From the IMG/VR virus record IMGVR_UViG_3300025411_000008, positions 67,917 to 131,916 of that record: a stretch of DNA of 64,000 nt; one strand, given 5' to 3'. The position numbers were made by a program, and so were the translations under genes. The notes under the pieces are model-generated. The model worked only from the letters and a program-made list of their open reading frames with translations, was not told the origin of the DNA and ran no database searches. Of this stretch, positions 22,609 through 61,047 are shown one piece after another (the first letter of the stretch is position 1; each line of letters starts with the position of its first letter). The stretch comes from a virus.

Positions 22609-22630
22609 ATGTTTATTGCATGGCATGCAG

Positions 22631-22717: not shown

Positions 22718-22722
22718 TTATG

Positions 22723-42312: not shown

Positions 42313-42319
42313 TACGCAA

Positions 42320-42392
42320 TGCCGAAATCATCACGTCGGGAGATGTTGTGGTCGTCGTAGGGTGATGCCTACGGCCTGATGATGGCAGTCAG
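42320..42392 (+). ncRNA. type II hammerhead ribozyme HH1
   Basis: TGCC-GAAA-[stem III]-GTC|-[stem I GTCGTAGG/CCTACGGC, loop GTGATG]-CTGATGA-T-GGCA; predicted cut after 42353. Confidence 0.88.
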
Positions 42393-42394
42393 CT

Positions 42395-42442
42395 AACTAA
42401 ACCAGTCCTGAGGAGGACACTATGAAGGAAGTAACAACGATC
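42395..42442 (+). repeat. 48-bp direct repeat, copy 1 (RBS + first 7 codons)
   Basis: Identical to 42843-42890. Confidence 0.95.
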
Positions 42443-42790
42443 GACGCTGCTAAGGCTTTGGTTGAGCACTACGCTGCTGCGGCTGAGCTCATGACTGCTG
42501 AGGCTAAGGCTGAGTACGAGGCTGCTTTGGCTGCGTACGAGGCTGTTGAGGCTAAGTACGAGGCTAAGCAGGACGCTGCTTGGGCTAAGCGTGACGCTGC
42601 TAAGGCTGAGTACTACGCTGCTCAGGCTGAGTTCAAGGCTGCCGAGGCTGAGTTCGACGATGCTTGGGCTGAGTACCACGCTGCTTTGGCTAAGTACGAC
42701 GCTGCTTTGTCTAAGCCTGAGGTCAAGGCTGCTTGGGCTAAGTTCTACGCTGCTATGGCTGAGCTCAACGCTGCTCAGGCTGAGCAGTAA
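42422..42790 (+). CDS. Ala-rich helical repeat protein
   Basis: 122 aa, 7-residue repeats A-A-(W/L)-A-(E/K)-(Y/F)-x, strong RBS. Confidence 0.75.
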   Translation: MKEVTTIDAAKALVEHYAAAAELMTAEAKAEYEAALAAYEAVEAKYEAKQDAAWAKRDAAKAEYYAAQAEFKAAEAEFDDAWAEYHAALAKYDAALSKPEVKAAWAKFYAAMAELNAAQAEQ

Positions 42791-42842
42791 CAGCTCGGTT
42801 CACAAGGGGTATGAGCTCCACCCCACCCAACGGGCTCAACCC

Positions 42843-42890
42843 AACTAAACCAGTCCTGAGGAGGACACTATGAAGGAAGTAACAACGATC
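42843..42890 (+). repeat. 48-bp direct repeat, copy 2
   Basis: Identical to 42395-42442. Confidence 0.95.
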
Positions 42891-43130
42891 AGCGGTTCCG
42901 TCTACCTCATCAATGAAGATGAGCAGATGTGGTGCCGGAAGTCAACTGCCCCTGTGCGCAAGTACGATAACGGGGAGTACGTCGACACCGCTCTGGCACC
43001 AGAGAACGAGGACTGGCAGTCGTACATCGATGTTGTGTTCGGTCTCGGTCTCCACATCGAGTACATCACGGACAACAACCGCTTCGGCACGATCAACTCG
43101 ACTCCAATCGACAAGATTGTGCAGTTGTAA
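42870..43130 (+). CDS. hypothetical protein
   Basis: 86 aa; T.SGSVY.I and STPI..I motifs; strong RBS. Confidence 0.7.
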   Translation: MKEVTTISGSVYLINEDEQMWCRKSTAPVRKYDNGEYVDTALAPENEDWQSYIDVVFGLGLHIEYITDNNRFGTINSTPIDKIVQL

Positions 43131-43135
43131 CAAAC

Positions 43136-43196
43136 GCCGAATCCCCGAAAGGGGAAGTGCTGGGGTGATGCCCAGTGCCTGATGATGGCAGTCACC
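43136..43196 (+). ncRNA. type II hammerhead ribozyme HH2 (U15.1-A16.1 variant)
   Basis: GCC-GAA-T-CCCC-GAAA-GGGG-A-A|-GTGCTGGG-GTGATG-CCCAGTGC-CTGATGA-T-GGC-AGTCACC; predicted cut after 43156. Confidence 0.8.
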
Positions 43197-43224
43197 ACCA
43201 CAACTAGTAAGGAAAAAGATAACA

Positions 43225-43521
43225 ATGAAGTATGTCTACATGGCTACTTGGCGCTATGAGTCGATCATCGGTGACATTACCGACGAGAACTGGTACAACG
43301 TTGAGGACCGTCCGGATTACGACGGTGACTTCGTAGAGCCACGGGTTCGTGTCTTCGAGTACCTCGAGGATGCAATCAAGCTCTACTCGGTCTTCGGGTT
43401 CGAGTTCACATCTGAGCGCTTTGGTTCCGTCAACGGATGGCGTCACCGGAAGTTGGCACCAAACTCTGGCGTGACGATTTCAACTCAGATCGTCATCGAG
43501 CGTATCAGCATCACCAAGTAG
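43225..43521 (+). CDS. hypothetical protein
   Basis: 98 aa with RBS. Confidence 0.65.
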   Translation: MKYVYMATWRYESIIGDITDENWYNVEDRPDYDGDFVEPRVRVFEYLEDAIKLYSVFGFEFTSERFGSVNGWRHRKLAPNSGVTISTQIVIERISITK

Positions 43522-43535
43522 TAAGCAGTTCAATC

Positions 43536-43605
43536 TCTGCTGTAGCTCAGTGGTAGAGCAGCGAACGTATGTTCGTAGTCGTGGGTTCGATTCCCACCAG
43601 CAGTA
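43536..43605 (+). ncRNA. tRNA-like element with non-canonical anticodon loop
   Basis: Canonical D and T arms, 6-bp acceptor stem plus a U1/U72 mismatch; anticodon arm GCGAAC-GTAT-GTTCGT has no 7-nt loop. Confidence 0.75.
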
Positions 43606-43779
43606 CGATGGTGTTTTACACACACCAGGCAACAAGAGGACGCGCTCGGTCCGTCCGGCACCTCGGTCATAGCGACCCAAAGGACTTCGGTCCCTCTGCA
43701 CAGGGGTTCTGCTCCTGTGCAATAACACGGCCACCGACCGTGTCAGCGGTACTGACACACAACTAGATGGAGAACCATC

Positions 43780-44676
43780 ATGGCAAAAAATGCCAACTCG
43801 GTGCCTAGCACCAACACCGTCCCATCCACCCTCGGCATGGACAAGGAGGTCGTGCAGCAGCACAAGCGCGACTTCAAGTCCAAGTCGACCGGACAGGACG
43901 GACACGACGACTTCATGTCGGCGGACGTCACGCAGTTCCTCGCACTCGGTCTCATCGCTTTCGATGAGGTCCAGGCTGCGGCGAACCTGCTGATGAAGCA
44001 GACGTTGGACTTCGCCATCGGCAAGTCCTTCGACATCTTCACCGCTGCACGTGAGGGTCACCTGGACTACGTCGAGCACGTCATCGCCGTGGCTGAGCAG
44101 CTTCAGCCTGACGACAACGTGACGCAGGACGACATCTTCTTCGGCTCGTACTACAAGGTACGCCAGCAGGTGAAGATCGTCTCAGGTCTCAAGAAGGAAG
44201 TGGAAGAGGACGGTTCTGTCTTCGGCTACTACTTCGAGATCGAGCGTCGCAACGTGCTCTCGTCCGGCAAGGCATTCCCTTGGAAGGGTGCCAAGCTGCT
44301 GGGTGCAGGCATTCACGAAGACTTCAAGCTCTACGCTAAGGTCGACGCGAACGAGCAGCCCACGGGTGAGTTCTACATGCTGGACCGCTCTGACGACGAA
44401 GTCTACGTCGAGCTCGGTGACACCAGCGTGTGGACCTCGTGCATCGACGACATCACGGACCGCAACATCGTGAAGCGTTACAACGCGCTTCTCGCATCTG
44501 TGGACCGTGACGTCAAGGTGCGCTGGTACAAGAAGGGCTTCGCCATGGGAGACGCGAACACTGCACAGCAGTTCGTCTTCTGGAACGTCTTCAAGATGTT
44601 CAAGGCGGAGTCCGACTACCAGCTGGTGGACGACACCACGGTTGAGGTCGCATCAACCGAGCCTGCTAACGCTTAG
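43780..44676 (+). CDS. hypothetical protein (probably highly expressed)
   Basis: 298 aa, strong C/G third-position bias, GGAG RBS. Confidence 0.75.
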   Translation: MAKNANSVPSTNTVPSTLGMDKEVVQQHKRDFKSKSTGQDGHDDFMSADVTQFLALGLIAFDEVQAAANLLMKQTLDFAIGKSFDIFTAAREGHLDYVEHVIAVAEQLQPDDNVTQDDIFFGSYYKVRQQVKIVSGLKKEVEEDGSVFGYYFEIERRNVLSSGKAFPWKGAKLLGAGIHEDFKLYAKVDANEQPTGEFYMLDRSDDEVYVELGDTSVWTSCIDDITDRNIVKRYNALLASVDRDVKVRWYKKGFAMGDANTAQQFVFWNVFKMFKAESDYQLVDDTTVEVASTEPANA

Positions 44677-44832
44677 TTAGCTCCAGTCTTGAGTCAGGAC
44701 TGGGTTACCTTAAACTGACTCACCCCCAGACATATGTCGATGTTCTTAGGCTTATAACCTAAGTGGGGGGCCCTGTAGTACAGGCTGTATGCAAACTATG
44801 TATACAGAACAATCCCTGAGGAGGGAAACACT

Positions 44833-44997
44833 ATGGCAAAGGCAAACTTTGTCCCCGCTGGCTTCACCATTGGTGAGAAGGCACCCAAGGAATCCGCAAG
44901 GGTTCACTTCACTGTCATCCGCAACGAGGCGGAGCAGAGGAAGGTCACGCGGGACTTGGGACTCTTCATTGAGTTCAAGACACGCAAGAATCGGTAA
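44833..44997 (+). CDS. small hypothetical protein (54 aa)
   Basis: Hand-translated MAKANFVPAG...RKNR* after a GAGGAGG RBS. Confidence 0.65.
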   Translation: MAKANFVPAGFTIGEKAPKESARVHFTVIRNEAEQRKVTRDLGLFIEFKTRKNR

Positions 44998-45002
44998 ACA
45001 AC

Positions 45003-45062
45003 GCCGAATCGCCGGGAGGCGACGTCCTAGAGTGATGTCTAGGGCCTGACGATGGCAGTCAG
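45003..45062 (+). ncRNA. type II hammerhead ribozyme HH3 (U15.1-A16.1 variant)
   Basis: GCC-GAA-T-CGCC-GGGA-GGCG-A-C|-GTCCTAGA-GTGATG-TCTAGGGC-CTGACGA-T-GGC; predicted cut after 45023. Confidence 0.8.
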
Positions 45063-45088
45063 TTTACAACCTAACTAGGAGAATCACT

Positions 45089-45232
45089 ATGTCAGTATTA
45101 GAATCAGGTCAAAAGATCTGTGTGGCCCCCGATTGTGATAAAGACCACGGCCCCGAGGTTGTGTCCTGTAAATCACAAATTGTTTCACGTGAGCTTTTGT
45201 GTCACGTGAAACAACTTCCCACGACGATGTAA
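45089..45232 (+). CDS. small hypothetical protein (47 aa)
   Basis: Hand-translated MSVLESGQKIC...TTM* after an AGGAG RBS. Confidence 0.45.
   Translation: MSVLESGQKICVAPDCDKDHGPEVVSCKSQIVSRELLCHVKQLPTTM
45181..45213. promoter_or_regulatory. tandem parS-like sites
   Basis: TGTTTCACGTGAGCTT (12/16) and TGTGTCACGTGAAACA (15/16) versus consensus TGTTTCACGTGAAACA. Confidence 0.6.
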
Positions 45233-45259
45233 TGTTTCGCGTCAGTTGTTATAGAGTGC

Positions 45260-45679
45260 ATGAAGAAAACATTCTATGACTATGTTGAGAAGACTGACAG
45301 CTGTTGGCTGTGGGTAGGCCCTTTGAATAAGGATGGGTATGGTTACTGGCGGGATAAGCTAGTCCACCGTATAACTTATCTAGAATATCATGGGGCTTAC
45401 CCACCCAACACAGTAACAGATCATCTGTGCAGAGTAAGACACTGTGTTAACCCCGAACACCTCGAGGCTGTATCTATTGCTGAGAATGTTCGTAGGGGGC
45501 GGGCAAGCGAAGCTACTAAGCTACGCCACGCTTCAGTTACTCATTGTCCAAATGGGCATGAATACACTGAGGATAATACGTATCGTTCAGTGGGGAAAGA
45601 TGGCGCCCCTCGACGTCACTGTAAGGCTTGTGTCAAGACACGTCGTAAAGCCAGTTACTATTCTAATAGAGCGTTGTAA
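45260..45679 (+). CDS. HNH endonuclease
   Basis: CWLW.G....GYG, HR..Y, DHLCRVRHCVNPEHLE, plus a C-terminal HCPNGH..CKAC. Confidence 0.9.
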   Translation: MKKTFYDYVEKTDSCWLWVGPLNKDGYGYWRDKLVHRITYLEYHGAYPPNTVTDHLCRVRHCVNPEHLEAVSIAENVRRGRASEATKLRHASVTHCPNGHEYTEDNTYRSVGKDGAPRRHCKACVKTRRKASYYSNRAL

Positions 45680-46214
45680 TGGCGTATCGAGTACGTTAAG
45701 TGTAGGCTGTTAACCTAATAAGTTAATAAGTTATTACGTCAAAGCCGTGTTGTTCATTACATTCAAAACACAAACGTGCCCCGCTTATACTAATAAGCTA
45801 AGCTGCCCTGTGTGGGAACCCTTTCACAGTTAAGGGGCATGTGCGTATTCGATGCGTCATTAGGATGCTCTATTAGAACATTGTACCTAGTACCCTATGT
45901 TCTATGGGGGGCTGATAAAAAATTGTCTTGTGTTTAGACACAAGCTACTTCCCCACAGTACAAATATACTTGTACTTGTATAGTAGGTTGCAATAGCATC
46001 ATCATCTAGTGAGTGGATGGTGGTGCTATTGGGACAAACTATAAGGGGCAAGTCCTACCCTAAGTAAGGAGTTACTAGTGAATACATTCGCTGTGTGGGC
46101 TTGAGTACCACCTTTGATGGATGCATAGGTAGTTCGGGATTTTTTTCCTCCTACCCGGACTACCTATGGGTCAATCAAGGGACTTACCCACCCACAACTA
46201 GTAAGGGAATTAAT

Positions 46215-46664
46215 ATGAGTGCATTAATCAGTTTCCAGCACGTGATTCATAGCTTGGAAGGCGGTGTTGTAGACCTCGCCTGCTTCAAGTACGAGTTCAT
46301 GGAGCTCAACCACATCCACCTCGCCGTTGTAGACTCTTCGGACTACTACGACGTGATACAGATGTCCGCTGCCCAGACTGGTGGCACGTGGAAGGTTGAC
46401 TACTCCATTCCTGTCTGGTACATTGACTGGCCCTTGTACAACATCAAGCCCGTGCAGAATGCCAAGGACGTTGCTATCGCAGAGTTCAAGGCGTTGAAGC
46501 GTGTCATTCGTGACCAGCAAACCCACCTGGACATTGTTCAGCGTGACGCATGTGGCACAGAGAGTGGTAAGATTGAGAAGTCTTTAGCTCACTTGATGTA
46601 CAATCAGGGCGAGTCACTCTGGTCGCCCGAGCGCGGTGACGGCTGGGGTATCGTAGGTCAGTGA
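46215..46664 (+). CDS. hypothetical protein
   Basis: Start placed at MSALIS after AACTAGTAAGGG. Confidence 0.65.
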   Translation: MSALISFQHVIHSLEGGVVDLACFKYEFMELNHIHLAVVDSSDYYDVIQMSAAQTGGTWKVDYSIPVWYIDWPLYNIKPVQNAKDVAIAEFKALKRVIRDQQTHLDIVQRDACGTESGKIEKSLAHLMYNQGESLWSPERGDGWGIVGQ

Positions 46665-46776
46665 CCGGGGGTTGTACGTATTCTACCGAGCAGCAGTTTG
46701 GTTCGGTAGTTTACTAGGACATCCGGTCCTCCACTAGAGATGGTGGCTAAACTATCCTAACTAGTAAGGAGAACGC

Positions 46777-47220
46777 ATGAGTAAATTCATGGTACTTGGT
46801 AATCACAGAGGGACAACGTTTGACTTTGGTGTCTTCGACTCTCAGTCTGATGCTATCCTAGCAGTTGAGATAGCACGGTCTGGAGATCGAAGCCCTGAGT
46901 CCCCGCTCGAGTGGAGTCTTGTTTCAGACAGCAAAAACCGATTCGGGTTCTACCACTACGCTAGCGCGTACGATGGTACGTGCACGACCGAGTTTAACAT
47001 TGTTGAGTTGAACGAGCCACGAACCACTCTCGAAGAGATGATCGAACACTCGTTCGGTTTCACTCCCGGTGAAGAGGAAGCTGACCCAGTTGATCCAGAG
47101 CCAGTCGACATCTCTTCTGCAAAGAAGAAGAAGCCACTCACGGTCCTGGACCCATACGTTGACCCCCTCAAGGTTGAAGCTCGTGAAGCTTGGGCTAAGA
47201 TGGAGAGGGAGGAAGACTAA
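46777..47220 (+). CDS. hypothetical protein
   Basis: 147 aa, AAGGAG RBS. Confidence 0.7.
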   Translation: MSKFMVLGNHRGTTFDFGVFDSQSDAILAVEIARSGDRSPESPLEWSLVSDSKNRFGFYHYASAYDGTCTTEFNIVELNEPRTTLEEMIEHSFGFTPGEEEADPVDPEPVDISSAKKKKPLTVLDPYVDPLKVEAREAWAKMEREED

Positions 47221-47489
47221 TGCAGCTGGACACGAAGCGCCTTATCGATGCTGGGATCACCGATGCTGACATGGTAGTCATCTTCGGTGCATTCGACATG
47301 ATGATGAGTGGTCTTGAAGACACCATCGAAGGCTCGAGAGAAGACCTCCCCTTTACTGACAACGACCTCGACCGTGTGAAGCAGCGCACTCAAGAGGTTG
47401 CTGCCAAGATCAAGGCTTGGGAAGATGCCAAGGTTGAACTACGTGGTGAGCAATTCATGACGTGGTTTCAATCAGGTAACCAAGACTGA
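47220..47489 (+). CDS. hypothetical protein
   Basis: 89 aa, TAATG coupling. Confidence 0.65.
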   Translation: MQLDTKRLIDAGITDADMVVIFGAFDMMMSGLEDTIEGSREDLPFTDNDLDRVKQRTQEVAAKIKAWEDAKVELRGEQFMTWFQSGNQD

Positions 47490-47623
47490 TTGGCGATTGC
47501 AGCCCACTCACGAGCCGGAACATTGGTTCGTGAGTGGTATGGGATAACCAATCCCCCACTACGGATGGTGGTTAAACTATCCAAGTGCAGTACAATGCAG
47601 TAACTAGTAGGAAGGCAAGGTAC

Positions 47624-48184
47624 ATGAGTACACTGCGTAAGTTGTGTATCTGTGGTGCCTTCGTTGCGACAGCATTTGTTGTCACGCAACCAGGTGAGTT
47701 CACCTACGTGTCTGGGCAGCCCCAGTCATTAAGGGTGGCTCATGCTGCTGTCACTACGACGACGTATCCTGTTGAGGTTATCCCTCGCACGGTACTGACA
47801 TCGTATGCTGACAGTCAGCCCCTGGTTCTGATAGCTCCGTTGCAGCGATGGAACACAGAGTCATACGACCCAACAGCCACATGGCCCGATGCTACTGACC
47901 CAATCAGTACTCTTACGATGGCAGCGCAAGTAAAGTTTGCTTGCATACGCTATCGCGAGAGCAGGAATCACGTGCGCTCTGTGGAAATTCACAGTGGTGC
48001 TGCTGGTTGGTATCAGTTCACCCCATACATCTGGGGTTATGCACGGGAGTATATACCTGGGCTACCAGCTACAGCTGCAACAGCATCTGGAGACGAACAG
48101 TCGAAGGTTGCTGTGTGGTATTACAAGCGCAACAATGGTTTCTTCCCTGAATGGGAAGCTGACCAGGGCTTTTGTAATTTGTAG
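47624..48184 (+). CDS. secreted Rpf-like/lytic transglycosylase
   Basis: Signal-like N-terminus; CIRYRES, GAAGWYQF..IW and A..A..DEQ..VA...W lysozyme-like Rpf motifs. Confidence 0.72.
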   Translation: MSTLRKLCICGAFVATAFVVTQPGEFTYVSGQPQSLRVAHAAVTTTTYPVEVIPRTVLTSYADSQPLVLIAPLQRWNTESYDPTATWPDATDPISTLTMAAQVKFACIRYRESRNHVRSVEIHSGAAGWYQFTPYIWGYAREYIPGLPATAATASGDEQSKVAVWYYKRNNGFFPEWEADQGFCNL

Positions 48185-48248
48185 TATGCATTACTGGTAT
48201 GAGTTCCACCAGACCCAACGGGCTCACCCAAATAGTAAGGAGACTACA

Positions 48249-48419
48249 ATGTGGATTTCATCAGACACACCAGAGCCAGAAATTGACCCTGAGTTTGCGG
48301 AAGTAATGAAGCAATTCCTTTTGGAAGGAGAGGCTTCAGGCAAGTTCAAGGTGCTTCGTGGTAAGGAGGCAGAGGAAGCTCTGCGTCATGCCCCTCGTCG
48401 TGGTTGCATCGGTTACTAG
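48249..48419 (+). CDS. small hypothetical protein
   Basis: Start placed at MWISSD after AAGGAG. Confidence 0.6.
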   Translation: MWISSDTPEPEIDPEFAEVMKQFLLEGEASGKFKVLRGKEAEEALRHAPRRGCIGY

Positions 48420-48423
48420 ACCG

Positions 48424-48702
48424 ATGAGCCAAGACGGGTACGTCAGAGACGGTAGTCGTAAGTGGGACAACCCTGCTTACAACTGGTACAACCATTGGGA
48501 TTTGCGTCAAAAGCGTGGGACAGGTTTGCACCCTGACCCATTGAACACGGTTTCAGGTTGGTGGTGTTGTTCAAGATGTTCATTAAGCATGGGCAAAACG
48601 AGGCGCAAGCAAGCGAAGTCGTTTGCACATCGTTGGGAGCGTCGTACTTACAAGTACAAGATCCAATCCATCTTGCAGGAAGAATTGCAAGAGACCTTCT
48701 AA
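48424..48702 (+). CDS. basic hypothetical protein
   Basis: Start placed at MSQDGY; CCSRC. Confidence 0.5.
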   Translation: MSQDGYVRDGSRKWDNPAYNWYNHWDLRQKRGTGLHPDPLNTVSGWWCCSRCSLSMGKTRRKQAKSFAHRWERRTYKYKIQSILQEELQETF

Positions 48703-48858
48703 GTATTAACGGGCACCGAGTGGCAGTAACTATAAGTTATTGTCACTCGGTTGCTGCGAGAGATATCCAAGTCAGACGACGGGTTTGGGTATCTCTCGGA
48801 GTAATCTTATCCCGTTACTCTGTAGTAAATAGTAGGGACAACTAGTAGGAGAATCACA

Positions 48859-49365
48859 ATGGACCACGTCAAGATGAGTCAGATCATCCGTTCAATCGCA
48901 GGCGTAAGCCTGGATGAATTGTTCCTCGACGCAACCGGAAGTCACCCGACTGTTCAACAGTTGGCTGACGTCTCCGAGTTCATCGAGAACAAGTACGGTG
49001 TGACGAACACGGTGGAAGCAGAGGCAGAGGTCGAAGAGACAACTGCACCTGTCGCTACCATCGTTAAGCCAAAGGTAACTCGCAGCTACACCAAGCGCAA
49101 GCAGACGCGTAGCAAGCCCACATTCGTTGTGGACTGGCAGGATCCTCAGGTTCAGATGTTCGTTGACCTGGCACTCGACGGTGAAGAGAACACGTTCACG
49201 TTCGCTGAGTTGAACAGCATCATGCCTTTCAACCGCGTGAGCTTCAACGTGTTCACTTCGTACCTTCGCAAGAAGGCCATCCGTCGTGGCTACAAAGGCC
49301 TGATCACCAAGCGTAACCTTGCCAGCCGCACGGTTACAGTTCAGGCCAAGCGCACCAACGCTTAA
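48859..49365 (+). CDS. hypothetical protein (possibly DNA-binding)
   Basis: 168 aa, AGGAG RBS, basic C-terminal domain. Confidence 0.65.
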   Translation: MDHVKMSQIIRSIAGVSLDELFLDATGSHPTVQQLADVSEFIENKYGVTNTVEAEAEVEETTAPVATIVKPKVTRSYTKRKQTRSKPTFVVDWQDPQVQMFVDLALDGEENTFTFAELNSIMPFNRVSFNVFTSYLRKKAIRRGYKGLITKRNLASRTVTVQAKRTNA

Positions 49366-49371
49366 TTTGGT

Positions 49372-49442
49372 TCTGCAGTAGCTCAATGGCAGAGCACTAC
49401 ACCCATGGTGTAGGGGTGGAGGTTCGATCCCTCCCTGCAGTA
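49372..49442 (+). ncRNA. tRNA-Met(CAT)-like element, probably non-decoding
   Basis: Cloverleaf with a U1/U72 mismatch; anticodon loop CC-CAT-GG lacks U33 and can close to a 3-nt loop. Confidence 0.72.
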
Positions 49443-49507
49443 CGGTAACACACCACCCCGGTGTGTACCCGGTGTCACCAAGCACCGTAACTAGAAGGAA
49501 ACCTATT

Positions 49508-51744: not shown

Positions 51745-51883
51745 CCACGAGTTCCTTGAGTAACTAATCACTCAAACAACTCGGGTGTATCCTTTCGGGT
51801 ACACCTGAGTACCATGTTACATCACACAACGTGATGTACAGTGTGCCCACCGAGGCACTGTCTAAGCAATAAGGAGTACCACT

Positions 51884-52243: not shown

Positions 52244-52252
52244 GGAGAGAAG

Positions 52253-52558
52253 ATGATCAAGACTGAAGTTCAAGAGCATGCTGAAGGTCTGCGGTCCCGT
52301 ATCAATGAGGCCACAGACCTTGACTCGCTCAAGGAATACAGCCTCAAGATCGTAGACCTTCTCACCAAGATTGACCAGTTGGTTGGTCTTGGTGAGGAGC
52401 GTTGGGTCTTGGCTGACTGTAAGTTAGAAGCTGTAACTACGGTCGCCAATGGTCTCATTGAGCTGCTTGAAGCCATTGAGGAATCGTCTACGATTCTAAA
52501 CAATGTCTCTTCTTACAGCGCAGCTATCGCAGCTGCTCGAGACATCATCGAGGCCTAG
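52253..52558 (+). CDS. hypothetical protein
   Basis: 101 aa, AAGGAG RBS. Confidence 0.7.
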   Translation: MIKTEVQEHAEGLRSRINEATDLDSLKEYSLKIVDLLTKIDQLVGLGEERWVLADCKLEAVTTVANGLIELLEAIEESSTILNNVSSYSAAIAAARDIIEA

Positions 52559-52559
52559 T

Positions 52560-53766
52560 TGTAACCTCCCTCGGCTAATTGGGGGAGCCTTAGCTCTTGC
52601 GAACTAACTCCACGCATTTACACACACAGTGTGTATTTGACGTGGGGTTGGTTGGCAGACGATGTGGAGGGTTATCGTTAAAACCCTAGCCTGGGCTATG
52701 CCGTTGAGGAGGAGATGGCGGTTGCATACTATGGCTTGTCCTGGAAAAGATATGGAAGCTGGTAGATGGTTAAACTATCTATAAAGCCCTCAGCATAAGG
52801 GGAAGCTTATGTAGGAAAATCAAGGCGCCTTAAAGGCCTATCGCAGAGGAGCGGAGAATCCATACTTGTTGGTAGATAGACATAGGAACCATCGTGCAAG
52901 CGAGCGCGTGTACAGGTGAAGACGCTCAAGCCTATGCATGCTTCGTTGTGTGCATAGGCCCTGTTGTGTTTACAGTGACCAGAGATGCAGGCGTGCAGTT
53001 TTATACGCAACGCACAGGAGTCGAGTTAAACACAATCTCAGCATGAGGGGAAGCTCATGTAGGAGCGGAGGCTCTCCTTAAACCTGCACACTTAAATCCC
53101 GGCCACCGATGTAAAACGTGGTAGCTGCGCTAGCTTAACTGGCGATCCCGTACATGCTTCATTGTGTGTACGGGAGCAACTCACGGCGAGTATACCAGAC
53201 CCAGCTGGCAACCTGTAAAGGCCATCTCACCATACGGGGAAGCGTATGGAGGCAATCAGAAGCCTACTTAATAGACGGGAAGCTACTGCCAGAGTGTAGC
53301 CGGTGCAATCCGTTAGCTTGCTAATACTTCCTAGTTGGTATGATACAAAGGAACTAGGGTGGTCCTGGGTATGACCACTGGAAAACTGCCCTCTTTCTCT
53401 TCAACCACGATGCACCGGCATATGAGCCTTATGAGATCGTTGGTTGATAGACTCGGCATGAGGAGCAACTCATGTAGGTTGGCCTACTACCTGTGTGTTA
53501 CACGAGTGTATGGCGTCCTGGGTATGACGATAAACTGCCTCCTTTCTTGTGTTCACATGGACAGCATATGCGCGATGAGATGCGAACACGGACTCAACAT
53601 AAGGAGCAGCTTATGTAGGAAGTGGTAGATGCCTACTTAAAAAATACACGTTACCCAGAACGATACTTTGGTAGCTTCTTAGTTGGTAGTTGGAACTATG
53701 GTGCTAGTAAGCGCGAGTACTGGTGAAGACGCTTAACACCTGGGCATGTGTATAAAAGGCCTACTA
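52560..53766 (+). ncRNA. putative large modular ncRNA (~1.2 kb)
   Basis: No credible ORF in an otherwise gene-dense region; five classes of repeated hairpin/pseudoknot modules with compensatory changes and G-U pairs on the + strand. Confidence 0.72.
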
Positions 53767-53900
53767 GGGTGTGTAGTTTAAGCTGGAAAAACCCTTAGTA
53801 GCTGTGACATCCAACTATCTAAATATAGAAAATTGTTGGTTAGCACTCAGAACTTACGTCACGGTTAAAGGGAATGGTGGTTCGAACCCACCCACACCCA
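53767..53900 (+). ncRNA. tRNA-like element with ~60-nt expansion of the anticodon arm
   Basis: Acceptor GGGTGTG/CACACCC-A, D stem GTTT/AAAC, T arm GGTGG-TTCGAAC-CCACC, extended stem TAGCTGTGAC/GTCACGGTTA. Confidence 0.8.
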
Positions 53901-53929
53901 CGCAGTACCAAACCAACTAGTAAGGAGAT

Positions 53930-54163
53930 ATGATGGAAATCAAGGTAGAACAGCAGGGACCTGAGCTTCGTATGCAAGTCATCTTTGATGAGCCTGCGCA
54001 GTCGGAAGTCTTTCGTGAAGAGTTCGAATCAATGATGGAGCGCATCGCCAAGCGTCTTGACGCAGTGGTACTCGGTGCAGAAACCGATGGTTCAATCTCT
54101 AAGGAAGAGATCCGTAAGCAGTTTGCAGAGACTGTTAACAAGTTCGTTAGCAAGGAGGAGTAA
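53930..54163 (+). CDS. hypothetical protein
   Basis: 77 aa, AAGGAG RBS. Confidence 0.7.
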   Translation: MMEIKVEQQGPELRMQVIFDEPAQSEVFREEFESMMERIAKRLDAVVLGAETDGSISKEEIRKQFAETVNKFVSKEE

Positions 54164-54579
54164 TGATTGCACGTGAACTAAGGTGGTCTCGCAGGAATGA
54201 CGATGATGATATCATCTGGACTGCGAAGACTTATCCTAATCACGGGTATTGGCATCACAACGTAGACCTGTCTTTTACTTTGGAGTCAGGTAGGCGTTAT
54301 GCCATCACCAACCGCAATGCTGTCCTCACTGTGCGTAAGCGCGAAGAGGGCAAGAAGGTTGCCACAAAGGTTCTGTTACAGAAAGAGTTTGATAATTCTT
54401 ATGTTGCTAAGAACCTGATTGACTCACTTCTGTATTCAGCTCGTATGTTGTACGAGAAGTTACCACACATGGCAGAACAGTGGTTCTTAGAGCAGCTGAC
54501 TAACATGCCTGATGCTGATGAACCAGAGCAACCCGATGTTCATACTAAGGTTCATTACCCAAGAGGGTATCCCTGCTGA
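54163..54579 (+). CDS. hypothetical protein
   Basis: 138 aa, TAATG coupling. Confidence 0.7.
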   Translation: MIARELRWSRRNDDDDIIWTAKTYPNHGYWHHNVDLSFTLESGRRYAITNRNAVLTVRKREEGKKVATKVLLQKEFDNSYVAKNLIDSLLYSARMLYEKLPHMAEQWFLEQLTNMPDADEPEQPDVHTKVHYPRGYPC

Positions 54580-54694
54580 TTAGGCATTCTAATCACAATA
54601 GTTGTGTAACGTAAGTTACACAGCTATACTATGTGTAAGTAGCACAGAAGGCAGCCATGCCTACAAAATGGCAATCTAACAAGGAGTATATACT

Positions 54695-55057
54695 ATGACT
54701 GCAATGTCAGATGAAATTAAGCTTGCAATCCTTCAGGACCAGCTTAAGAACATTACAATGGGCGTGAAGATGATGATCACCATCCAAGCGACCTTTGAGG
54801 CACAGCGTCAGTACATGGCTGGTATCTTGCCAGATGAACTCAAGAATGTCCCAGAGACAGATGACTTCAAGAACATGTACATGGCTGCAAGTGAGGCATA
54901 CAACGAAGTAGTCCGTAACATGACTATCTTTGTTGACAACATGACTCAGGTGTTTGATTACAGTTTTGCTGACACCCTGCCAACAGACAAGGAAGGCTTC
55001 CAGAAGATGGCTGAAGAATTGTCTGAGCAGGTTGACAAGTACAACGAAATCAACTGA
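54695..55057 (+). CDS. hypothetical protein
   Basis: 120 aa, AAGGAG RBS. Confidence 0.7.
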   Translation: MTAMSDEIKLAILQDQLKNITMGVKMMITIQATFEAQRQYMAGILPDELKNVPETDDFKNMYMAASEAYNEVVRNMTIFVDNMTQVFDYSFADTLPTDKEGFQKMAEELSEQVDKYNEIN

Positions 55058-55058
55058 C

Positions 55059-55226
55059 ATGGATATCTTCAGTAAGGTAATAGCTTACGAGCAAGATGAG
55101 CTCAACGAAGAAGAAACCGTTGAGTTGTTCCAAGAGCTTATCGACAATGGTATGGCCTGGAGTCTTCAGGGCCACTACGGTCGTACAGCCACGAACCTCA
55201 TCGAGAATGGGTTGTGCCATGCCTGA
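55059..55226 (+). CDS. small phage protein (LFQELID.G.AWSLQGHYGRTA motif)
   Basis: Start placed at MDIFSK; motif recalled from phage early proteins. Confidence 0.65.
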   Translation: MDIFSKVIAYEQDELNEEETVELFQELIDNGMAWSLQGHYGRTATNLIENGLCHA

Positions 55227-55356
55227 TACAATTCCACGTCAGGAAGTAATCGAGATGTTAACTCATATCGAGATGCTTCTGCTTGCAATGCAAGACCAGG
55301 AAGCATGGTCGTATACTCACATTCTTTGTAAGGCAATCAAAGACGGTGAGTATTAA
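55219..55356 (+). CDS. small hypothetical protein
   Basis: Start placed at MPDTIP, overlapping the upstream stop. Confidence 0.5.
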   Translation: MPDTIPRQEVIEMLTHIEMLLLAMQDQEAWSYTHILCKAIKDGEY

Positions 55357-55367
55357 GTAGTAAGGTA

Positions 55368-55429
55368 GCTTCAGTTTGGTAACGAAGTTCAACAGTTCGA
55401 TTCTGTTGTGGAGCACTCCCAAGTAGGGA
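55368..55429 (+). ncRNA. mini tRNA mimic 1 (acceptor stem + T arm) with trailing hairpin
   Basis: GCTTCA/TGGAGC, CAACAG-TTCGATT-CTGTTG, then TCCC-AAGTA-GGGA. Confidence 0.65.
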
Positions 55430-55452
55430 AACAAATAGTAGGAAGGTATAGT

Positions 55453-56193
55453 ATGCCGACAGAAATCATCTGGGTACCAAAACCCGATGGTAAGACCTGG
55501 AATTCCAGTCGCACTCGTGACTTGGTTGACCTGGCTTTCACCATTGAGAGGAAGAGTGATGACCACACCATGATCATGATTCGTTGCTCTAAGAACAGCG
55601 ATGAAAATGGTCGTGCGAGGACTGTCATTGGTCGCGTCTACACTAAGAGTGTGTTAGCTGCACGGGAACTTGTTAAGCAAGTTGTCAGTGAAGCTAACAC
55701 GAAACCAAATCAGGAAGAAGCACGCAGTTGGCTCCTAAACCAAATGCTGGGATTCTCTCTTGATTTGTCTCCAGAGGGTCGACCATTGAATCCAGAAATC
55801 ATCAAGGATGGTGCATGGGTTACCAAGAATACTCTTGGTATGGTTGTGGCAAGCGAGACACCAGTCGCAGAGGAAGAGTTCGACGTTGCAGCACACGTTG
55901 AGTCCCTGCCTCTTGAGATTGACCTTAGCAAGCCAGTCACTGAGACACCAAGTAGTGGTATCTACAAGGTGGATCCAACGACTGAGTCATGGATTTCATG
56001 GGGTGATATTGCAGATGACCTTAGCAAGTCAATTGCAGCGAAGCGTGCTGCAATCGCAATGAAGGAGACTGTCGAAGCAGTTATGGAAACAGCTACACCT
56101 GTAGCTGAGCCAGTTGCTGAGGTAGTATCCACAGAAGCACCGCAGTTCATTACCATTAATGGTAAGCAAATCCCGATTGCCTATCCCAAATAG
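55453..56193 (+). CDS. hypothetical protein
   Basis: Start placed at MPTEII after GGAAGG. Confidence 0.7.
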   Translation: MPTEIIWVPKPDGKTWNSSRTRDLVDLAFTIERKSDDHTMIMIRCSKNSDENGRARTVIGRVYTKSVLAARELVKQVVSEANTKPNQEEARSWLLNQMLGFSLDLSPEGRPLNPEIIKDGAWVTKNTLGMVVASETPVAEEEFDVAAHVESLPLEIDLSKPVTETPSSGIYKVDPTTESWISWGDIADDLSKSIAAKRAAIAMKETVEAVMETATPVAEPVAEVVSTEAPQFITINGKQIPIAYPK

Positions 56194-56261
56194 CTAATCT
56201 GGTTGACCTGGGTAAGTCAATAAACTGCCCACCCAAACAACTAACAAGTAAGGAATAAGCT

Positions 56262-56663
56262 ATGAAGCAGTACGCTATTAAGGCAACCGCAAACAACGAC
56301 CTTGATGTTGTTGAGTTTGATGTAACGGACTCTTACGACACCATCAAGGAAGCTACTGGCGGTGGTACTATCCAATGCATCTACCTGAGTGAGCTCGACG
56401 TAGACATGTGGATTGATGACAATGGCAAGTTGGTTAACGAGCCAGAAATCAATGCGTTCGGTTCTGCCCTGTGGGTTCACTCATACGGCATGACCGACAT
56501 CATCGTTGGTGATATCATCATTACCGGTGGTGTAGATGATGAAGGCAATACGCTTGGTCTCAATGAAGAACAGGTTGCTACTGTCCTCAAGGCTGCCAAC
56601 GACACAATGCGTTTGGTAGCAGTAGATGCATTCAGCGAAGAGAACGTAACGATTGTAGTTTAG
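56262..56663 (+). CDS. DUF3846-like protein
   Basis: GGGTIQ, MWIDDNGKL...IN..GS and DIIVGDIIITG. Confidence 0.7.
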   Translation: MKQYAIKATANNDLDVVEFDVTDSYDTIKEATGGGTIQCIYLSELDVDMWIDDNGKLVNEPEINAFGSALWVHSYGMTDIIVGDIIITGGVDDEGNTLGLNEEQVATVLKAANDTMRLVAVDAFSEENVTIVV

Positions 56664-56670
56664 TAAGGTG

Positions 56671-56732
56671 GCCCTAGTCTGGCGATGAAGTATGGTGGTT
56701 CAATTCCATCTTAGGGCGCTCCCAGGTAGGGA
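56671..56732 (+). ncRNA. mini tRNA mimic 2 with trailing hairpin
   Basis: GCCCTAG/TTAGGGC, GGTGG-TTCAATT-CCATC, then TCCC-AGGTA-GGGA. Confidence 0.7.
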
Positions 56733-56761
56733 ACGTAGTAAGTTAATTAAGGAGTATAACT

Positions 56762-57319
56762 ATGGGTTTAGACCAGTATTCATGTAAGGTGCCACGTCAT
56801 GCTGACAACAATGACTTTTCTTATGTAAACGGAAAAGGTGTTGAACAGTTAGCTTATTGGCGTAAGCACCCTAACCTCGAAGGTTGGATGGAGCAGACTT
56901 TCAATCGCAAGGCTGATGCACAGAGCTTCAAAGGCTACACTGATTTCGGTACGGAAATCATTGCTACTGCTATTGAGCCCGAGGGCGAGTCGTTGACGAA
57001 AGAAGCGATAGCAGAGTTGTCTAACAAGGCTATGAATGACAAATTATTGCAAGAATTAATCATGACTGAGTCTTTCGCTTCCATGGCTGCTAACATCTCT
57101 AAGACTCGTGTGTTCAATGGGCAACCAATTAGGTTAACAATTGGCGACCTCGATCAACTTGAGATGCATGTTCGTCTTGAGACGTTACCTCCAACTACAG
57201 GTTTCTTCTTCGGTGACAATGCAGATAAAGAGTACTTTAAAGATGACTTGAAGTTCATCGAAGAAGCACGTAAGGCAATTGCAGATGGCTTTGATGTGTA
57301 TTACGAAAGCAGTTGGTAG
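56762..57319 (+). CDS. phage protein (MGLDQY...YWRKHPNL.GW family)
   Basis: MGLD.Y, YWRK, GFFFG and Y.SSW motifs. Confidence 0.75.
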   Translation: MGLDQYSCKVPRHADNNDFSYVNGKGVEQLAYWRKHPNLEGWMEQTFNRKADAQSFKGYTDFGTEIIATAIEPEGESLTKEAIAELSNKAMNDKLLQELIMTESFASMAANISKTRVFNGQPIRLTIGDLDQLEMHVRLETLPPTTGFFFGDNADKEYFKDDLKFIEEARKAIADGFDVYYESSW

Positions 57320-57333
57320 TTAAGTAATAGGTT

Positions 57334-57398
57334 ACCCTAGCCAGACGGTGGTGATGTATGCTAGTTCGATTCTAGCTTAGGGTGCTCCCAAGTTGGGA
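57334..57398 (+). ncRNA. mini tRNA mimic 3 with trailing hairpin
   Basis: ACCCTAG/TTAGGGT, GCTAG-TTCGATT-CTAGC, then TCCCA-AGT-TGGGA. Confidence 0.7.
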
Positions 57399-57423
57399 AG
57401 TAAGTTAAATAAGGAGTAATACT

Positions 57424-57816
57424 ATGGGTGACCGTGGACAAGTAAAGATTACAGCTGAGGGCAATCCTGACCTGTACCTTTACACACACTGGGGTGCTGA
57501 ATCACTGCCTGAAGTCGTAGCGACTGCGTTAGCACGTGGCCGTGGTCGATGGACAGATGACGAGTACCTTAACCGCATTATCTTCTCAGAGATGATTCAA
57601 GACGATGTAATGTCAGAAACCGGTTACGGTATTGGTTTCGGTGAGCACGGTGACGTGTGGCGTGTCGTAGAGATTAACTACGACAACAAGACCGTTGCTA
57701 TTCGTGAAATCGATTACGAATCATGGGACCCAGAGAGTGGCATCGACAATATGCCATGGAAGTACACAACTGAGTCAATGGAATACGAACTGTTCATTAC
57801 TGAACACACTAACTAG
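57424..57816 (+). CDS. phage protein (MGDR...LYTHWG family)
   Basis: MGDRG, LYTHWG, RW.D..YL.RIIF..M and GYGI. Confidence 0.75.
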   Translation: MGDRGQVKITAEGNPDLYLYTHWGAESLPEVVATALARGRGRWTDDEYLNRIIFSEMIQDDVMSETGYGIGFGEHGDVWRVVEINYDNKTVAIREIDYESWDPESGIDNMPWKYTTESMEYELFITEHTN

Positions 57817-57824
57817 GAGGAACG

Positions 57825-58088
57825 ATGGATTGGTTTGACGACGCTAAGTGTAAAGGCGTTAGTCAAGACGTTTTCTTTCTTGAGGGTCATGCAGGCCCAA
57901 AAGAATCAAGAGAGAGAGTAGTTGCTGCTAGGGTTTACTGCAATGCTTGCCCTGTAAAGCAGAAGTGTCTTGAGTATGCAATAAAGAACAAGGAGAAGCA
58001 CGGCATTTACGGCGGTGCTACTCCAGTAGAACGCCATGCTATGCGTGGTTTTATAAAGAAAGAAAGTAAGTTAAGTGTTGTTAAGTGA
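57825..58088 (+). CDS. whiB: WhiB-family transcription factor
   Basis: W...AKC, FF, CNACPVKQKCLEYA and HGIYGG.T..ER. Confidence 0.9.
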   Translation: MDWFDDAKCKGVSQDVFFLEGHAGPKESRERVVAARVYCNACPVKQKCLEYAIKNKEKHGIYGGATPVERHAMRGFIKKESKLSVVK

Positions 58089-58199
58089 TTATGGCCTAGA
58101 GCCACCAACAAACTTGGTCGAAGCCCATCTAGTAATTGAAAAGTTGCTAGATCGGTGCGATCAACTCAATGAAATCATCGAAGAGTTAGAGGAGTATTA

Positions 58200-58406
58200 A
58201 TGGCTAAGTATATTATCCGTGACTGGATGAATAACGTACTGTTTGACGGTATCGAGTTCGACAGTTTTGAGGAAGGATGGGATTGGTTGTACGTCAACCA
58301 CCCAGAGCCTGAGGAGTCAAGTTCCGACTGGATTGACGGTTGGAATGACGACTGGTTCGTAGTAGAGAAAGGTTACAGTGTGACCGGAAACAAGGAGGAA
58401 GAGTAA
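58200..58406 (+). CDS. hypothetical protein
   Basis: 68 aa, AGGAG RBS. Confidence 0.65.
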   Translation: MAKYIIRDWMNNVLFDGIEFDSFEEGWDWLYVNHPEPEESSSDWIDGWNDDWFVVEKGYSVTGNKEEE

Positions 58407-58554
58407 TGGATCCAGAGACACTAGAGGCAGCAATTAGCTTAACTAAGTGGTGCATTAAAGATGCAGAGAATAGCGGCGACTTAGAACACGCTATTCACAA
58501 TCTCAAGCGCATCTACGCATTCTTGACAGACACCGAGATAGGAGAGGAGGTATA

Positions 58555-58746
58555 ATGCAAGAGTATTACACAAGAGTTTCTATGGACGTTGCTGTTACGG
58601 CAAACAGTCCTGAAGAAGCAACTGAGAAATTAAATGATTGGCTAGACCGTCAGCAACTGATCGACAAGTCAATAGAGTCTGATTTCTGGTGGGACAACAT
58701 CGATTGGGATGATTGGGCTATCGTAAACACAGGAGAGGAAGCATAG
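58555..58746 (+). CDS. hypothetical protein
   Basis: 63 aa; V.A.S.EEA motif; GGAGG RBS. Confidence 0.65.
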   Translation: MQEYYTRVSMDVAVTANSPEEATEKLNDWLDRQQLIDKSIESDFWWDNIDWDDWAIVNTGEEA

Positions 58747-58994
58747 TGAGTAAGAAATATCCTATTTGTTTAACATGTGGTATGGAGTTAGATACTCCAT
58801 TAAAGCACCCATGTGACGAATGTGATGATGGTACGTGCGATGAATGCTGGGAGGTATAATGAAATGTAGTATATGTCAACTACCAATTCATGAGCCATTC
58901 GTTGGCCATGACTATGTAGATCATGTATGCTGTTTGAGGGATGAAACCCTCATGTGTGAGCATGATCATCGAGCAATCAAGTAAGGAGTAAGTT

Positions 58995-59183
58995 ATGATA
59001 TGTGAACCATGTGATCATGGACCTACTGTATATGAAAACTATTGTCAACATTGCAATGGTTTATGCCCCATATGTAGTGAGATGGGTGAGTGTGACACCT
59101 GTGGTAGAGAATATGAATTAGCTAGTCGTGATGGTCGCTGTGGCGACTGTGGCGATTGCAACGAGTGTTGTACCCACCTATAA
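58995..59183 (+). CDS. small Cys-rich protein
   Basis: 62 aa, multiple CxxC motifs, AAGGAG RBS. Confidence 0.6.
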   Translation: MICEPCDHGPTVYENYCQHCNGLCPICSEMGECDTCGREYELASRDGRCGDCGDCNECCTHL

Positions 59184-59206
59184 GATAGAAAGTAAGGAAA
59201 TAAACT

Positions 59207-59377
59207 ATGGCTTTCGCCACTAAAAAGAAGCTTTCAATGTGTCCACGTTGTAAGGAAACGTATTCAGGGTTCCCCGCTCTGTCTCGGCTCGACAACAAGA
59301 CATCAATCTGCTCCCCCTGTGGGACAGACGAGGCAATGCAGGACTTCGCAGGCGTCCCGCTCACTAACTTCCTATAA
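59207..59377 (+). CDS. small Zn-finger protein (CPRC...ALSR.DN...IC..CG..EA)
   Basis: Hand-translated 56 aa after an AAGGA RBS. Confidence 0.65.
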   Translation: MAFATKKKLSMCPRCKETYSGFPALSRLDNKTSICSPCGTDEAMQDFAGVPLTNFL

Positions 59378-59496
59378 GGAACTAACTCCTCGCATTTACA
59401 CACATAGTCTATACGATCAAACAAAGGAGGCAGTACCGAGTAAGCTAATATAAACCATGATGCAGTAAAATCTAGTTGAAGAAAAAAAGGCCTAGC

Positions 59497-59763
59497 ATGC
59501 AAGAGAATGCTACAGCGGTGTATAGGCTAAATCAGGTCATCGAGGAGCTCGCCAAGATTGGTTACAATTTTGAGGGCTTGCTCGATGGCCTGAAACTATA
59601 CAACGAATATAAGGGACATCTAGACATAGGCATTTATGAAGCCGCTCTAGAGTCATTTACCACAAGTATCACTGCATTGGGAGAGCAGATAAATAACTTC
59701 CATGCGGTTCTGTCTTACCTTAAGGATACCGTAGAGAACGGCATCCCCGGTAGTATTAGTTAG
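59497..59763 (+). CDS. hypothetical protein
   Basis: Start placed at MQENAT. Confidence 0.55.
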   Translation: MQENATAVYRLNQVIEELAKIGYNFEGLLDGLKLYNEYKGHLDIGIYEAALESFTTSITALGEQINNFHAVLSYLKDTVENGIPGSIS

Positions 59764-59773
59764 TAAAGTTAGC

Positions 59774-59848
59774 GCCGAAACCCCCGCTTTCTACGGGGGG
59801 TCTATGAAGGGGTTGTTTCCTTCATACCGATGATGGTAGACTATAACT
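59774..59848 (+). ncRNA. type II hammerhead-like ribozyme HH4 (U4C core variant)
   Basis: GCC-GAAA-CCCCC..GGGGG-TC|-TATGAAGG-loop-CCTTCATA-CCGATGA-T-GGT; loop GGTTGT can pair with downstream ATAACT; predicted cut after 59802. Confidence 0.7.
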
Positions 59849-59862
59849 AGAAAGGAGTAAGT

Positions 59863-60549: not shown

Positions 60550-60552
60550 CAT

Positions 60553-61046: not shown

Positions 61047-61047
61047 C

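Follow-up and report, generated by a model that had tools for sequence, protein, structure and literature searches.

We analysed a 64,000-nucleotide stretch of viral DNA (the window), in which four type II hammerhead ribozymes, here called HH1 to HH4, lie between phage genes. The window corresponds to bases 67917-131916 of IMG/VR record IMGVR_UViG_3300025411_000008, a linear record of 131,916 base pairs (bp) that is 89% complete by estimate and has a G+C content of 47%. The minus strand of the record carries the portal, terminase and virion protein genes, and a block of about 40 small genes on the plus strand (41603-61046 in window coordinates, which are used throughout) is transcribed in the direction opposite to these structural genes. 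By PHROG and Pfam matches, the block includes an HNH endonuclease, an AAA ATPase and two WhiB-like regulators. Since WhiB genes are present, this 132-kb uncultured virus is probably an actinophage with an actinobacterial host. All four hammerheads are on the plus strand, in gaps between co-directional open reading frames (ORFs) of the block (Table 1), and they are genuine type II hammerheads of the Rfam family Hammerhead_II (RF02276).

At each of the four sites the parts follow one another in the order GCC, GAA, a hairpin, a nucleotide other than G, a second hairpin, C(T/C)GA(T/C)GA, T and GG(C/T). This is the order given in a preliminary description of the same DNA, and it was confirmed both by direct reading and with a descriptor of our own (GAA, stem III hairpin, non-G nucleotide, stem I hairpin, C[TC]GANGA), which also placed the predicted cuts at the same four nucleotides. 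The 5′ and 3′ ends of each element pair with one another to form stem II (GCC with GG(C/T)), and in all four copies the GAA box lies directly 3′ of stem II, stem I has 8 bp and stem III has 5–11 bp. In HH1, stem III takes up 26 nucleotides (nt), with 11 positions, one C×U mismatch and a GGGA loop, and stem I has 8 bp and a 6-nt loop within 22 nt. Position 17, after which the cut is predicted, is never G (C, A, C and C in HH1 to HH4). The upstream stop codon and GCC are separated by 8, 5, 5 and 10 nt, and the predicted cut and the next ATG by 68, 68, 65 and 60 nt, in agreement with the ranges of 5–10 and 60–68 nt put forward earlier. The hammerhead secondary structure is within 0–3 kcal/mol of the minimum free energy (MFE) of each fragment, and for HH2 the hammerhead fold is itself the MFE structure.

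Table 1. Positions of the four hammerheads, their component parts, the adjoining genes and the AACTAG leader motif in the window.
Feature	Position	Strand	Details
HH1	42320-42394	+	RF02276 31.5 bits; own model R1 52.2 bits; predicted cut after C 42353
HH1 parts, 5′ half	42321-42375	+	GCC 42321-42323; GAA 42324-42326; stem III 42327-42352; C17 42353; stem I 42354-42375
HH1 parts, 3′ half	42376-42391	+	CTGATGA 42376-42382; extra T 42383; GGC 42384-42386; pseudoknot tail GTCA 42388-42391 (pairs with loop TGAT)
HH2	43135-43197	+	RF02276 27.9 bits; R1 53.5 bits; predicted cut after A 43156
HH2 parts, 5′ half	43136-43178	+	GCC 43136-43138; GAA 43139-43141; stem III 43142-43155 (14 nt, GAAA loop); A17 43156; stem I 43157-43178 (22 nt)
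HH2 parts, 3′ half	43179-43195	+	CTGATGA 43179-43185; T 43186; GGC 43187-43189; tail GTCAC 43191-43195 (pairs with loop GTGAT)
HH3	45002-45064	+	RF02276 36.7 bits; R1 58 bits; predicted cut after C 45023
HH3 parts, 5′ half	45003-45045	+	GCC 45003-45005; GAA 45006-45008; stem III 45009-45022 (14 nt, GGGA loop); C17 45023; stem I 45024-45045 (22 nt)
HH3 parts, 3′ half	45046-45061	+	CTGACGA 45046-45052; T 45053; GGC 45054-45056; tail GTCA 45058-45061
HH4	59773-59845	+	RF02276 35.5 bits; R1 54.5 bits; predicted cut after C 59802
HH4 parts, 5′ half	59774-59826	+	GCC 59774-59776; GAA 59777-59779; stem III 59780-59801 (22 nt); C17 59802; stem I 59803-59826 (24 nt)
HH4 parts, 3′ half	59827-59842	+	CCGATGA 59827-59833; T 59834; GGT 59835-59837; tail GACT 59839-59842
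61-amino-acid (aa) ORF	42127-42312	+	stop 8 nt before HH1; no PHROG/Pfam match
122-aa Ala-rich heptad-repeat protein gene	42422-42790	+	first cistron after HH1; no PHROG/Pfam match
86-aa ORF	42870-43130	+	stop 5 nt before HH2
98-aa ORF	43225-43521	+	first cistron after HH2
54-aa ORF	44833-44997	+	stop 5 nt before HH3; conserved in relative G001
47-aa ORF	45089-45232	+	first cistron after HH3; 56-aa counterpart in G001
95-aa ORF	59476-59763	+	stop 10 nt before HH4
228-aa DUF2786/DUF7168 protein gene (phrog_421)	59863-60549	+	first cistron after HH4
AACTAG leader motif	43202, 43761, 45073, 46196, 46759, 47602, 48840, 49489, 53915, 57811, 59845	+	

Run over the whole 131,916-bp genome, the descriptor found the four matches on the plus strand and none on the minus strand. 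In 100 first-order Markov genomes it found a mean of 0.19 matches and at most 2, and none of the 100 reached 4. Looser stem thresholds added weak matches, at first three on the minus strand outside the window, then one on the plus strand at about 43280 and a fourth on the minus strand, which were backed by neither of two covariance models (RF02276 and a model of our own, R1). In searches of the whole genome at E ≤ 10, RF02276 returned only the four sites from 14 candidates scored, with in-genome E-values from 4e-7 to 8.4e-5 and a match over the full model at each site. R1 also returned only the four sites at this threshold, and matches them by construction since its training set contains the four copies. 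Hammerhead_II was the sole significant non-tRNA Rfam family at these sites, and at E ≤ 0.5 Rfam had no other ribozyme family in 41400-61200. The motif has a short core, the four scores fall under the Rfam cut-off (see below), and RF02276 gave matches in 11 of 14 control genomes at E ≤ 10, all of which would suit chance look-alikes of a short motif. However, no control genome gave a match at E ≤ 0.01, four copies were observed where 0.19 were expected, all are intergenic and on the coding strand with an 8-bp stem I and a common pseudoknot register, and their orthologues are conserved with compensatory changes. The probability that we are dealing with look-alikes is therefore practically negligible, this explanation being effectively refuted by the Markov counts, the control genomes and the orthologues.

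The four copies share an architecture made up of an open stem II of 3 bp, one extra U between A9 and stem II (present in 4/4 copies) and a pseudoknot of 4–5 bp between loop I and the 3′ tail (a candidate one in HH4). In the Infernal alignment this appears as 2 nt inserted after CUGAUGA, ahead of the 3′ strand of stem II, which structurally equals a 3-bp stem II plus an extra U after A9. The pattern occurs at no fewer than 117 loci (at least) in viral contigs; among the matches listed, to which all counts out of 93 refer, 102 of 120 form both hairpins and yield 93 unique sequences. Four or more consecutive pseudoknot pairs in register are present in 88 of the 93, compared with 35.4 ± 3.5 (maximum 48) when the tails were permuted 500 times. 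An upstream ORF stops a median of 2 nt before GCC in 75, and a start codon with a Shine-Dalgarno sequence follows a median of 29 nt after the core in 86. This extra-U subclass may already sit in the supplementary alignments of Perreault 2011 (PMC3088659).

The preliminary description had assigned a type II topology with a pseudoknot between loop I and the 3′ flank. This was borne out by the full-model Hammerhead_II matches at the four sites and by the orthologues and more than 90 relatives in viral contigs, in which the pseudoknot covaries, as do stems I and III. The pairing partners needed adjustment. In HH1 to HH3 the loop I sequence is GUGAUG, and a pairing with the 3′ flank is present as claimed, but in a corrected register: UGAU pairs with the GUCA directly after GGCA (4 bp in HH1 and HH3), and in HH2 the helix is extended to 5 bp (GUGAU with GUCAC). 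One pair in these three copies is A-U where the Rfam consensus (loop UGG, tail GCC) has G-C. For HH4, the pairing GGTTGT/ATAACT proposed earlier fits this phage, but it fits only partially in a relative whose protein downstream is 78% identical and not at all in one at 55% identity; the register common to the three lineages is (G/A)GUU with GACU.

Pairing was also assessed in an alignment (A2) of 76 rows, which comprise the 4 window copies, 4 sequences from relatives and 68 other descriptor-positive unique sequences, look-alike rows having been removed by hand. Of the cells in A2, 86.5% are paired, whereas shuffling gave 66.0% and sliding the partners no more than 45%; these counts are biased towards pairing, since the descriptor demanded stems I, II and III of every row. 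The pseudoknot was not selected for, and its count alone is thus unbiased: the helix pairs in 73% of cells, with changes on both sides at 4 of 5 pairs.

The preliminary description had named the Rfam hammerhead models as a check, and the outcome is divided. RF02276 matches all four sites over its full length, but none reaches the gathering score of 37 bits (36.7, 35.5, 31.5 and 27.9 bits). What lowers the scores is the core variants, together with a pseudoknot that is A/U-richer and, in HH1, a long stem III. We rejected the extra-U architecture itself as the cause: in a sample of 20 extra-U loci, 16 of 20 hammerhead matches pass the Rfam cut-off and 4 fail (one locus had no match at E ≤ 0.01), and the extra U is therefore not enough to account for the low scores. 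For annotation, this means that real members with an A/U-rich pseudoknot or a core variant can fall just below the Rfam cut-off.

Related phages provide orthologues of two of the elements. The 228-aa protein encoded after HH4 has six relatives in viral contigs (78–49% identity), and it was through this protein that we found the closest record, G001, which is syntenic with the window. G001 has a hammerhead before the same gene as HH4 and another at the HH3 position, between ORFs of 55 and 56 aa. The latter scores 40.0 bits with RF02276, above the cut-off; its stem I and loop are identical to those of HH3, position 17 is A, the extra U is missing and the closing pair of stem III is A15.1-U16.1. 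Between HH3 and G001, positions 15.1 and 16.1 have therefore both changed in a way that preserves the pair. In the G001 orthologue of HH4, a stem I pair is swapped from U-A to C-G, and UUGACAA stands for CCGAUGA, a swap of C3/G8 to U3/A8. The loci with an HH4 orthologue ahead of this gene include L122 and L123. The relatives at 55% identity keep CCGAUGA (C4) and have no extra U; they also hold other hammerheads, of which two contain an additional U within the GAAA box. Motifs, uniqueness, conservation and covariation are demonstrated by these comparisons and by the searches above, and the compensatory pattern is what would be expected for RNAs whose structure and active site are under selection but which are dispensable over longer distances.

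Other searches for relatives were negative. A megablast of 42000-46000 against the phage collection matched no named phage relative, and a tblastn of a 298-aa protein against the same collection gave no match. For this protein the search for relatives in IMG/VR confirmed none, although the syntenic G001 does hold the gene.

We consider it likely that the four elements are genuine RF02276 ribozymes that cut a rightward polycistronic RNA into separate mRNAs, each ribozyme serving as a natural insulator. We infer block-wide transcription, self-cleavage 3′ of position 17 and the effects downstream of it. The four ribozymes would be transcribed within a rightward multi-gene RNA in which each, once folded, would cleave its own strand between position 17 and stem I. 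Cleavage would leave an upstream RNA that finishes, a few nt beyond the stop codon, with the stem III hairpin and a 2′,3′-cyclic phosphate, and a downstream RNA that starts with a 5′-OH at the 8-bp stem I hairpin, 60–68 nt ahead of the next start codon. In this way the polycistronic message would be divided into separate mRNAs, with the stability and translation of each cistron uncoupled from those of its neighbour. Structured RNA ends are established to slow exonucleases and 5′-end-dependent RNases in bacterial mRNA decay; by extension, slowed decay would be expected here because both new ends would be structured. A cistron-separating role fits the class-wide placement between an upstream stop and a downstream start, and an insulator role fits the fact that HH1 and HH2 lie within a block of genes which the closest relative we found lacks.

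Several observations weigh against this reading, in addition to the scores under the Rfam cut-off. Only 4 of about 40 plus-strand gene junctions in 41603-61046 carry a ribozyme, so the 'systematic' self-processing of the preliminary description is overstated. In three more distant relatives (L125-L127), no ribozyme was found before the same gene at E ≤ 1, and the element would accordingly be dispensable there. In HH1, the CUGAUGA box can instead pair with the 5′ strand of stem III, and this rival fold is 1.7 kcal/mol more stable than the hammerhead (-26.8 vs -25.1 kcal/mol in a nearest-neighbour model that lacks pseudoknot and tertiary terms). The candidate pseudoknot of HH4, GGUU/GACU, has only 4 bp, two of them G-U, and requires a stem I of 8 rather than 10 bp, so that lengthening stem I by 2 bp would compete with it. 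Finally, the conserved core is altered in three copies (U15.1-A16.1 in HH2 and HH3, C4 in HH4), a point absent from the preliminary description.

The core box is CTGATGA in HH1 and HH2, CTGACGA in HH3, where N7 is free, and CCGATGA in HH4 (U4C), and is thus exact in 3 of 4 copies. A15.1-U16.1 is kept in HH1 and HH4 and flipped to U15.1-A16.1 in HH2 and HH3, and the core of HH1 is canonical apart from the class-typical extra U. Sampled relatives share these deviations rarely: U15.1-A16.1 occurs in 0/93 (92/93 have A-U) and C4 in 2/93. Perreault 2011 (PMC3088659) reports that a natural hammerhead with U15.1-A16.1 self-cleaves, less efficiently, and that U4C in a viroid variant 'considerably decreases activity in vitro' and is sufficient in vivo; the same paper describes U3-A8 covariation, and in it variants with U15.1-A16.1, U3-A8 or U4C retain activity. 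An extra nucleotide between A9 and G10.1 is tolerated, U being the most active tested (PMC3705267, summarising De la Pena and Flores 2001). By analogy with these cases, HH2, HH3 and HH4 probably cut more slowly than the canonical-core HH1, given their core deviations (U15.1-A16.1, C4).

It could then be argued that only HH1, or perhaps none of the variants, still cleaves, and that HH2 to HH4 are decaying or crippled relics kept as plain intercistronic hairpins that stabilise or punctuate the RNA. The position of the deviations at near-invariant sites, the reported reduction in activity that both cause and the scores under the Rfam cut-off all agree with such decay. The deviations are, however, compensated rather than random. 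Compared with the orthologue, the change at 15.1/16.1 preserves Watson-Crick pairing, C4 is common to the 55%-identity relative, and G001 has the C3/G8 to U3/A8 double change. The remaining core, both stems and the pseudoknot are intact, and natural hammerheads with U15.1-A16.1 or U4C keep activity (PMC3088659). Compensated core changes are therefore the pattern expected under selection for a working active site, and we regard decay to plain hairpins as unlikely.

On the sequences compared, the clade appears unusually rich in compensated core variants (U15.1-A16.1, C4, U3-A8, the extra U in the GAAA box of relatives and the extra U after A9). It is conceivable, and in our view rather unlikely, that cleavage speed is tuned copy by copy, with slow ribozymes as kinetic timers or partial cutters that determine the ratio of coupled to uncoupled cistrons, and that the ribozyme-plus-leader unit travels with accessory cassettes as a portable expression insulator. 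Whatever their rates, one canonical and three single-variant copies are found on one putative transcription unit, with orthologues that are canonical or differently compensated. This makes the locus a natural panel for how far cleavage rate matters in vivo, and allows the type II topology, with a hairpin at both new RNA ends, to be tested as an mRNA insulator.

The surroundings of HH1 to HH3 bear marks of gene exchange. About 1.6 kb (~42113-43721) is represented in G001 by only ~190 bp, and the segment missing there holds the 61-aa ORF, HH1, two genes, HH2, the 98-aa gene and a tRNA-like gene. An exact direct repeat of 48 nt (D4; 42395-42442 and 42843-42890, plus strand) covers the leader, the Shine-Dalgarno sequence and the first 7 codons (MKEVTTI) of the 122-aa and 86-aa genes. 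As this exact leader repeat brackets the 122-aa gene, it suggests that a cassette may have been inserted by recombination at the leader. Over 68 nt that take in the 5′ flank, HH2 and HH3 are 79% identical, and they have the flipped pair in common, which suggests a possible duplication or gene conversion. These three features are compatible with the repeats acting mainly at the DNA level or as cassette borders, namely as ribozyme-plus-leader patches of homology for the exchange of accessory genes, RNA cleavage being incidental, and it fits this explanation too that the flanked genes are not constant (Perreault 2011, PMC3088659). Yet conservation tracks RNA pairing, through compensatory changes in stems and pseudoknot, and not DNA identity, and the borders of the block missing from G001 do not coincide with the ribozymes. 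A role chiefly in DNA exchange is in our judgement very unlikely, and it is in any case compatible with RNA cleavage.

The preliminary description had also called the divided message early. The block does consist of small genes opposite the structural genes, but a promoter and terminator scan of 41000-46500 gave nothing usable on timing (promoters 5 vs 4.8 in shuffles), and the label goes beyond the evidence.

Several other features lie near the ribozymes. AACTAG follows each ribozyme, and we rejected it as a ribozyme part: it is a general leader motif before the Shine-Dalgarno sequence of many plus-strand genes, directly 5′ of it in at least 11 of 13 occurrences in 41600-61046. At three places (42405-42418, 42853-42866 and 44813-44826) the Shine-Dalgarno sequence GAGGAGG is contained in a 4-bp hairpin (GTCC-TGAGGA-GGAC or TCCC-TGAGGA-GGGA), and these hairpins scanned as terminator-like on the minus strand. 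The 122-aa gene contains ~11-15 tandem 21-nt heptad repeats rich in Ala, Glu and Tyr (42455-42784, plus strand). Between HH2 and HH3, and within the block missing from G001, a tRNA-like gene (43536-43606, plus strand) has a shortened anticodon loop of 6 nt; it scores 57.2 bits with the Rfam tRNA model, and ARAGORN calls it 'tRNA-???' with anticodon (ta). The HNH endonuclease gene (45260-45679, plus strand; Pfam HNH_3, phrog_826) starts ~200 nt after HH3 and is probably a mobile insertion, as it is not present in the syntenic G001. Two long intergenic spacers on the plus strand (44677-44832, in DNA 77% identical to G001, and 43607-43779) contain several hairpins, with no above-noise Rfam match at E ≤ 10, and may be promoters or uncatalogued RNA structure.

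Elsewhere in the window, a run of sugar-nucleotide genes on the minus strand (22803-25349; phosphoheptose isomerase-like, heptose kinase/adenylyltransferase-like and nucleotide-sugar epimerase genes and a cysteine dioxygenase-like PHROG) adjoins a cluster of four tRNA genes at 22449-22794. Additional type II hammerheads with other core variants, GAUAA (an extra U in the GAAA box) and UUGAUAA (U3-A8), occur in the relatives G002 and G003 (L129:1499-1563 and 2335-2401, minus strand; L123:327-390, plus strand). On an unrelated viral contig, a twister-sister ribozyme (RF02681, 74 bits; L006:22-105, minus strand) lies ~190 nt from a type II hammerhead. Clustering of ribozyme classes, as in this pair, is known.

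Type II hammerheads with a pseudoknot between loop I and the 3′ tail have been described (Perreault 2011, PMC3088659), and that paper already contains the element, the pseudoknot and every one of the core variants, as well as clusters of such ribozymes between phage genes. Like those hammerheads and RF02276, the window copies have CUGAUGA and GAA(A) boxes and a pseudoknot of at least 4 bp between loop I and the nucleotides directly 3′ of stem II (a candidate pairing in HH4), and lie in intergenic phage DNA. They differ from the RF02276 model in their scores of 27.9-36.7 bits, their 3-bp stem II with an extra U, their A/U-richer UGAU/GUCA pseudoknot and the one core variant in three copies. In prophage arrays of A. 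tumefaciens, A. caulinodans and C. scindens, clustered hammerheads flank single genes or short gene blocks and cleave polycistronic transcripts of ~2 kb in vitro (PMC3088659). As in these arrays, several ribozymes per transcription unit bracket small genes of varying identity, the HH1-HH2 interval holding two genes and the HH2-HH3 interval three genes and the tRNA-like gene. Unlike them, the present copies belong to a 132-kb uncultured virus and are all of type II. Self-processing that separates cistrons was itself proposed, and called unproven, in Perreault 2011 (PMC3088659) and in a 2019 review (PMC6765202), which describes the biological role of bacterial and phage hammerheads as undefined.

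Cleavage in vivo has been detected by cyPhyRNA-seq for three type II hammerheads near phage-like genes of D. vulgaris (PMC8782182), which is direct evidence that bacterial and phage type II hammerheads of this kind are active in cells. They are of the same type as the window copies and have a similar phage-like gene setting; the organism and the sequences differ. The CChMVd (+) hammerhead also has one extra nucleotide between A9 and G10.1, and a U at this position raised its trans-cleavage rate 3-4-fold (PMC3705267). CChMVd is a viroid, its hammerhead has a different topology and its wild-type nucleotide is A, whereas the extra U is fixed in the phage-borne class (at least 117 loci). In synthetic insulators of the RiboJ type, a self-cleaving ribozyme is placed between promoter and ribosome binding site; cleavage leaves a defined 5′ hairpin and uncouples expression from the upstream sequence. 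Such parts are engineered, whereas the elements described here are natural, with the ribozyme just upstream of the ribosome binding site, and by analogy we infer that these phage elements may share the RiboJ-type insulator role.

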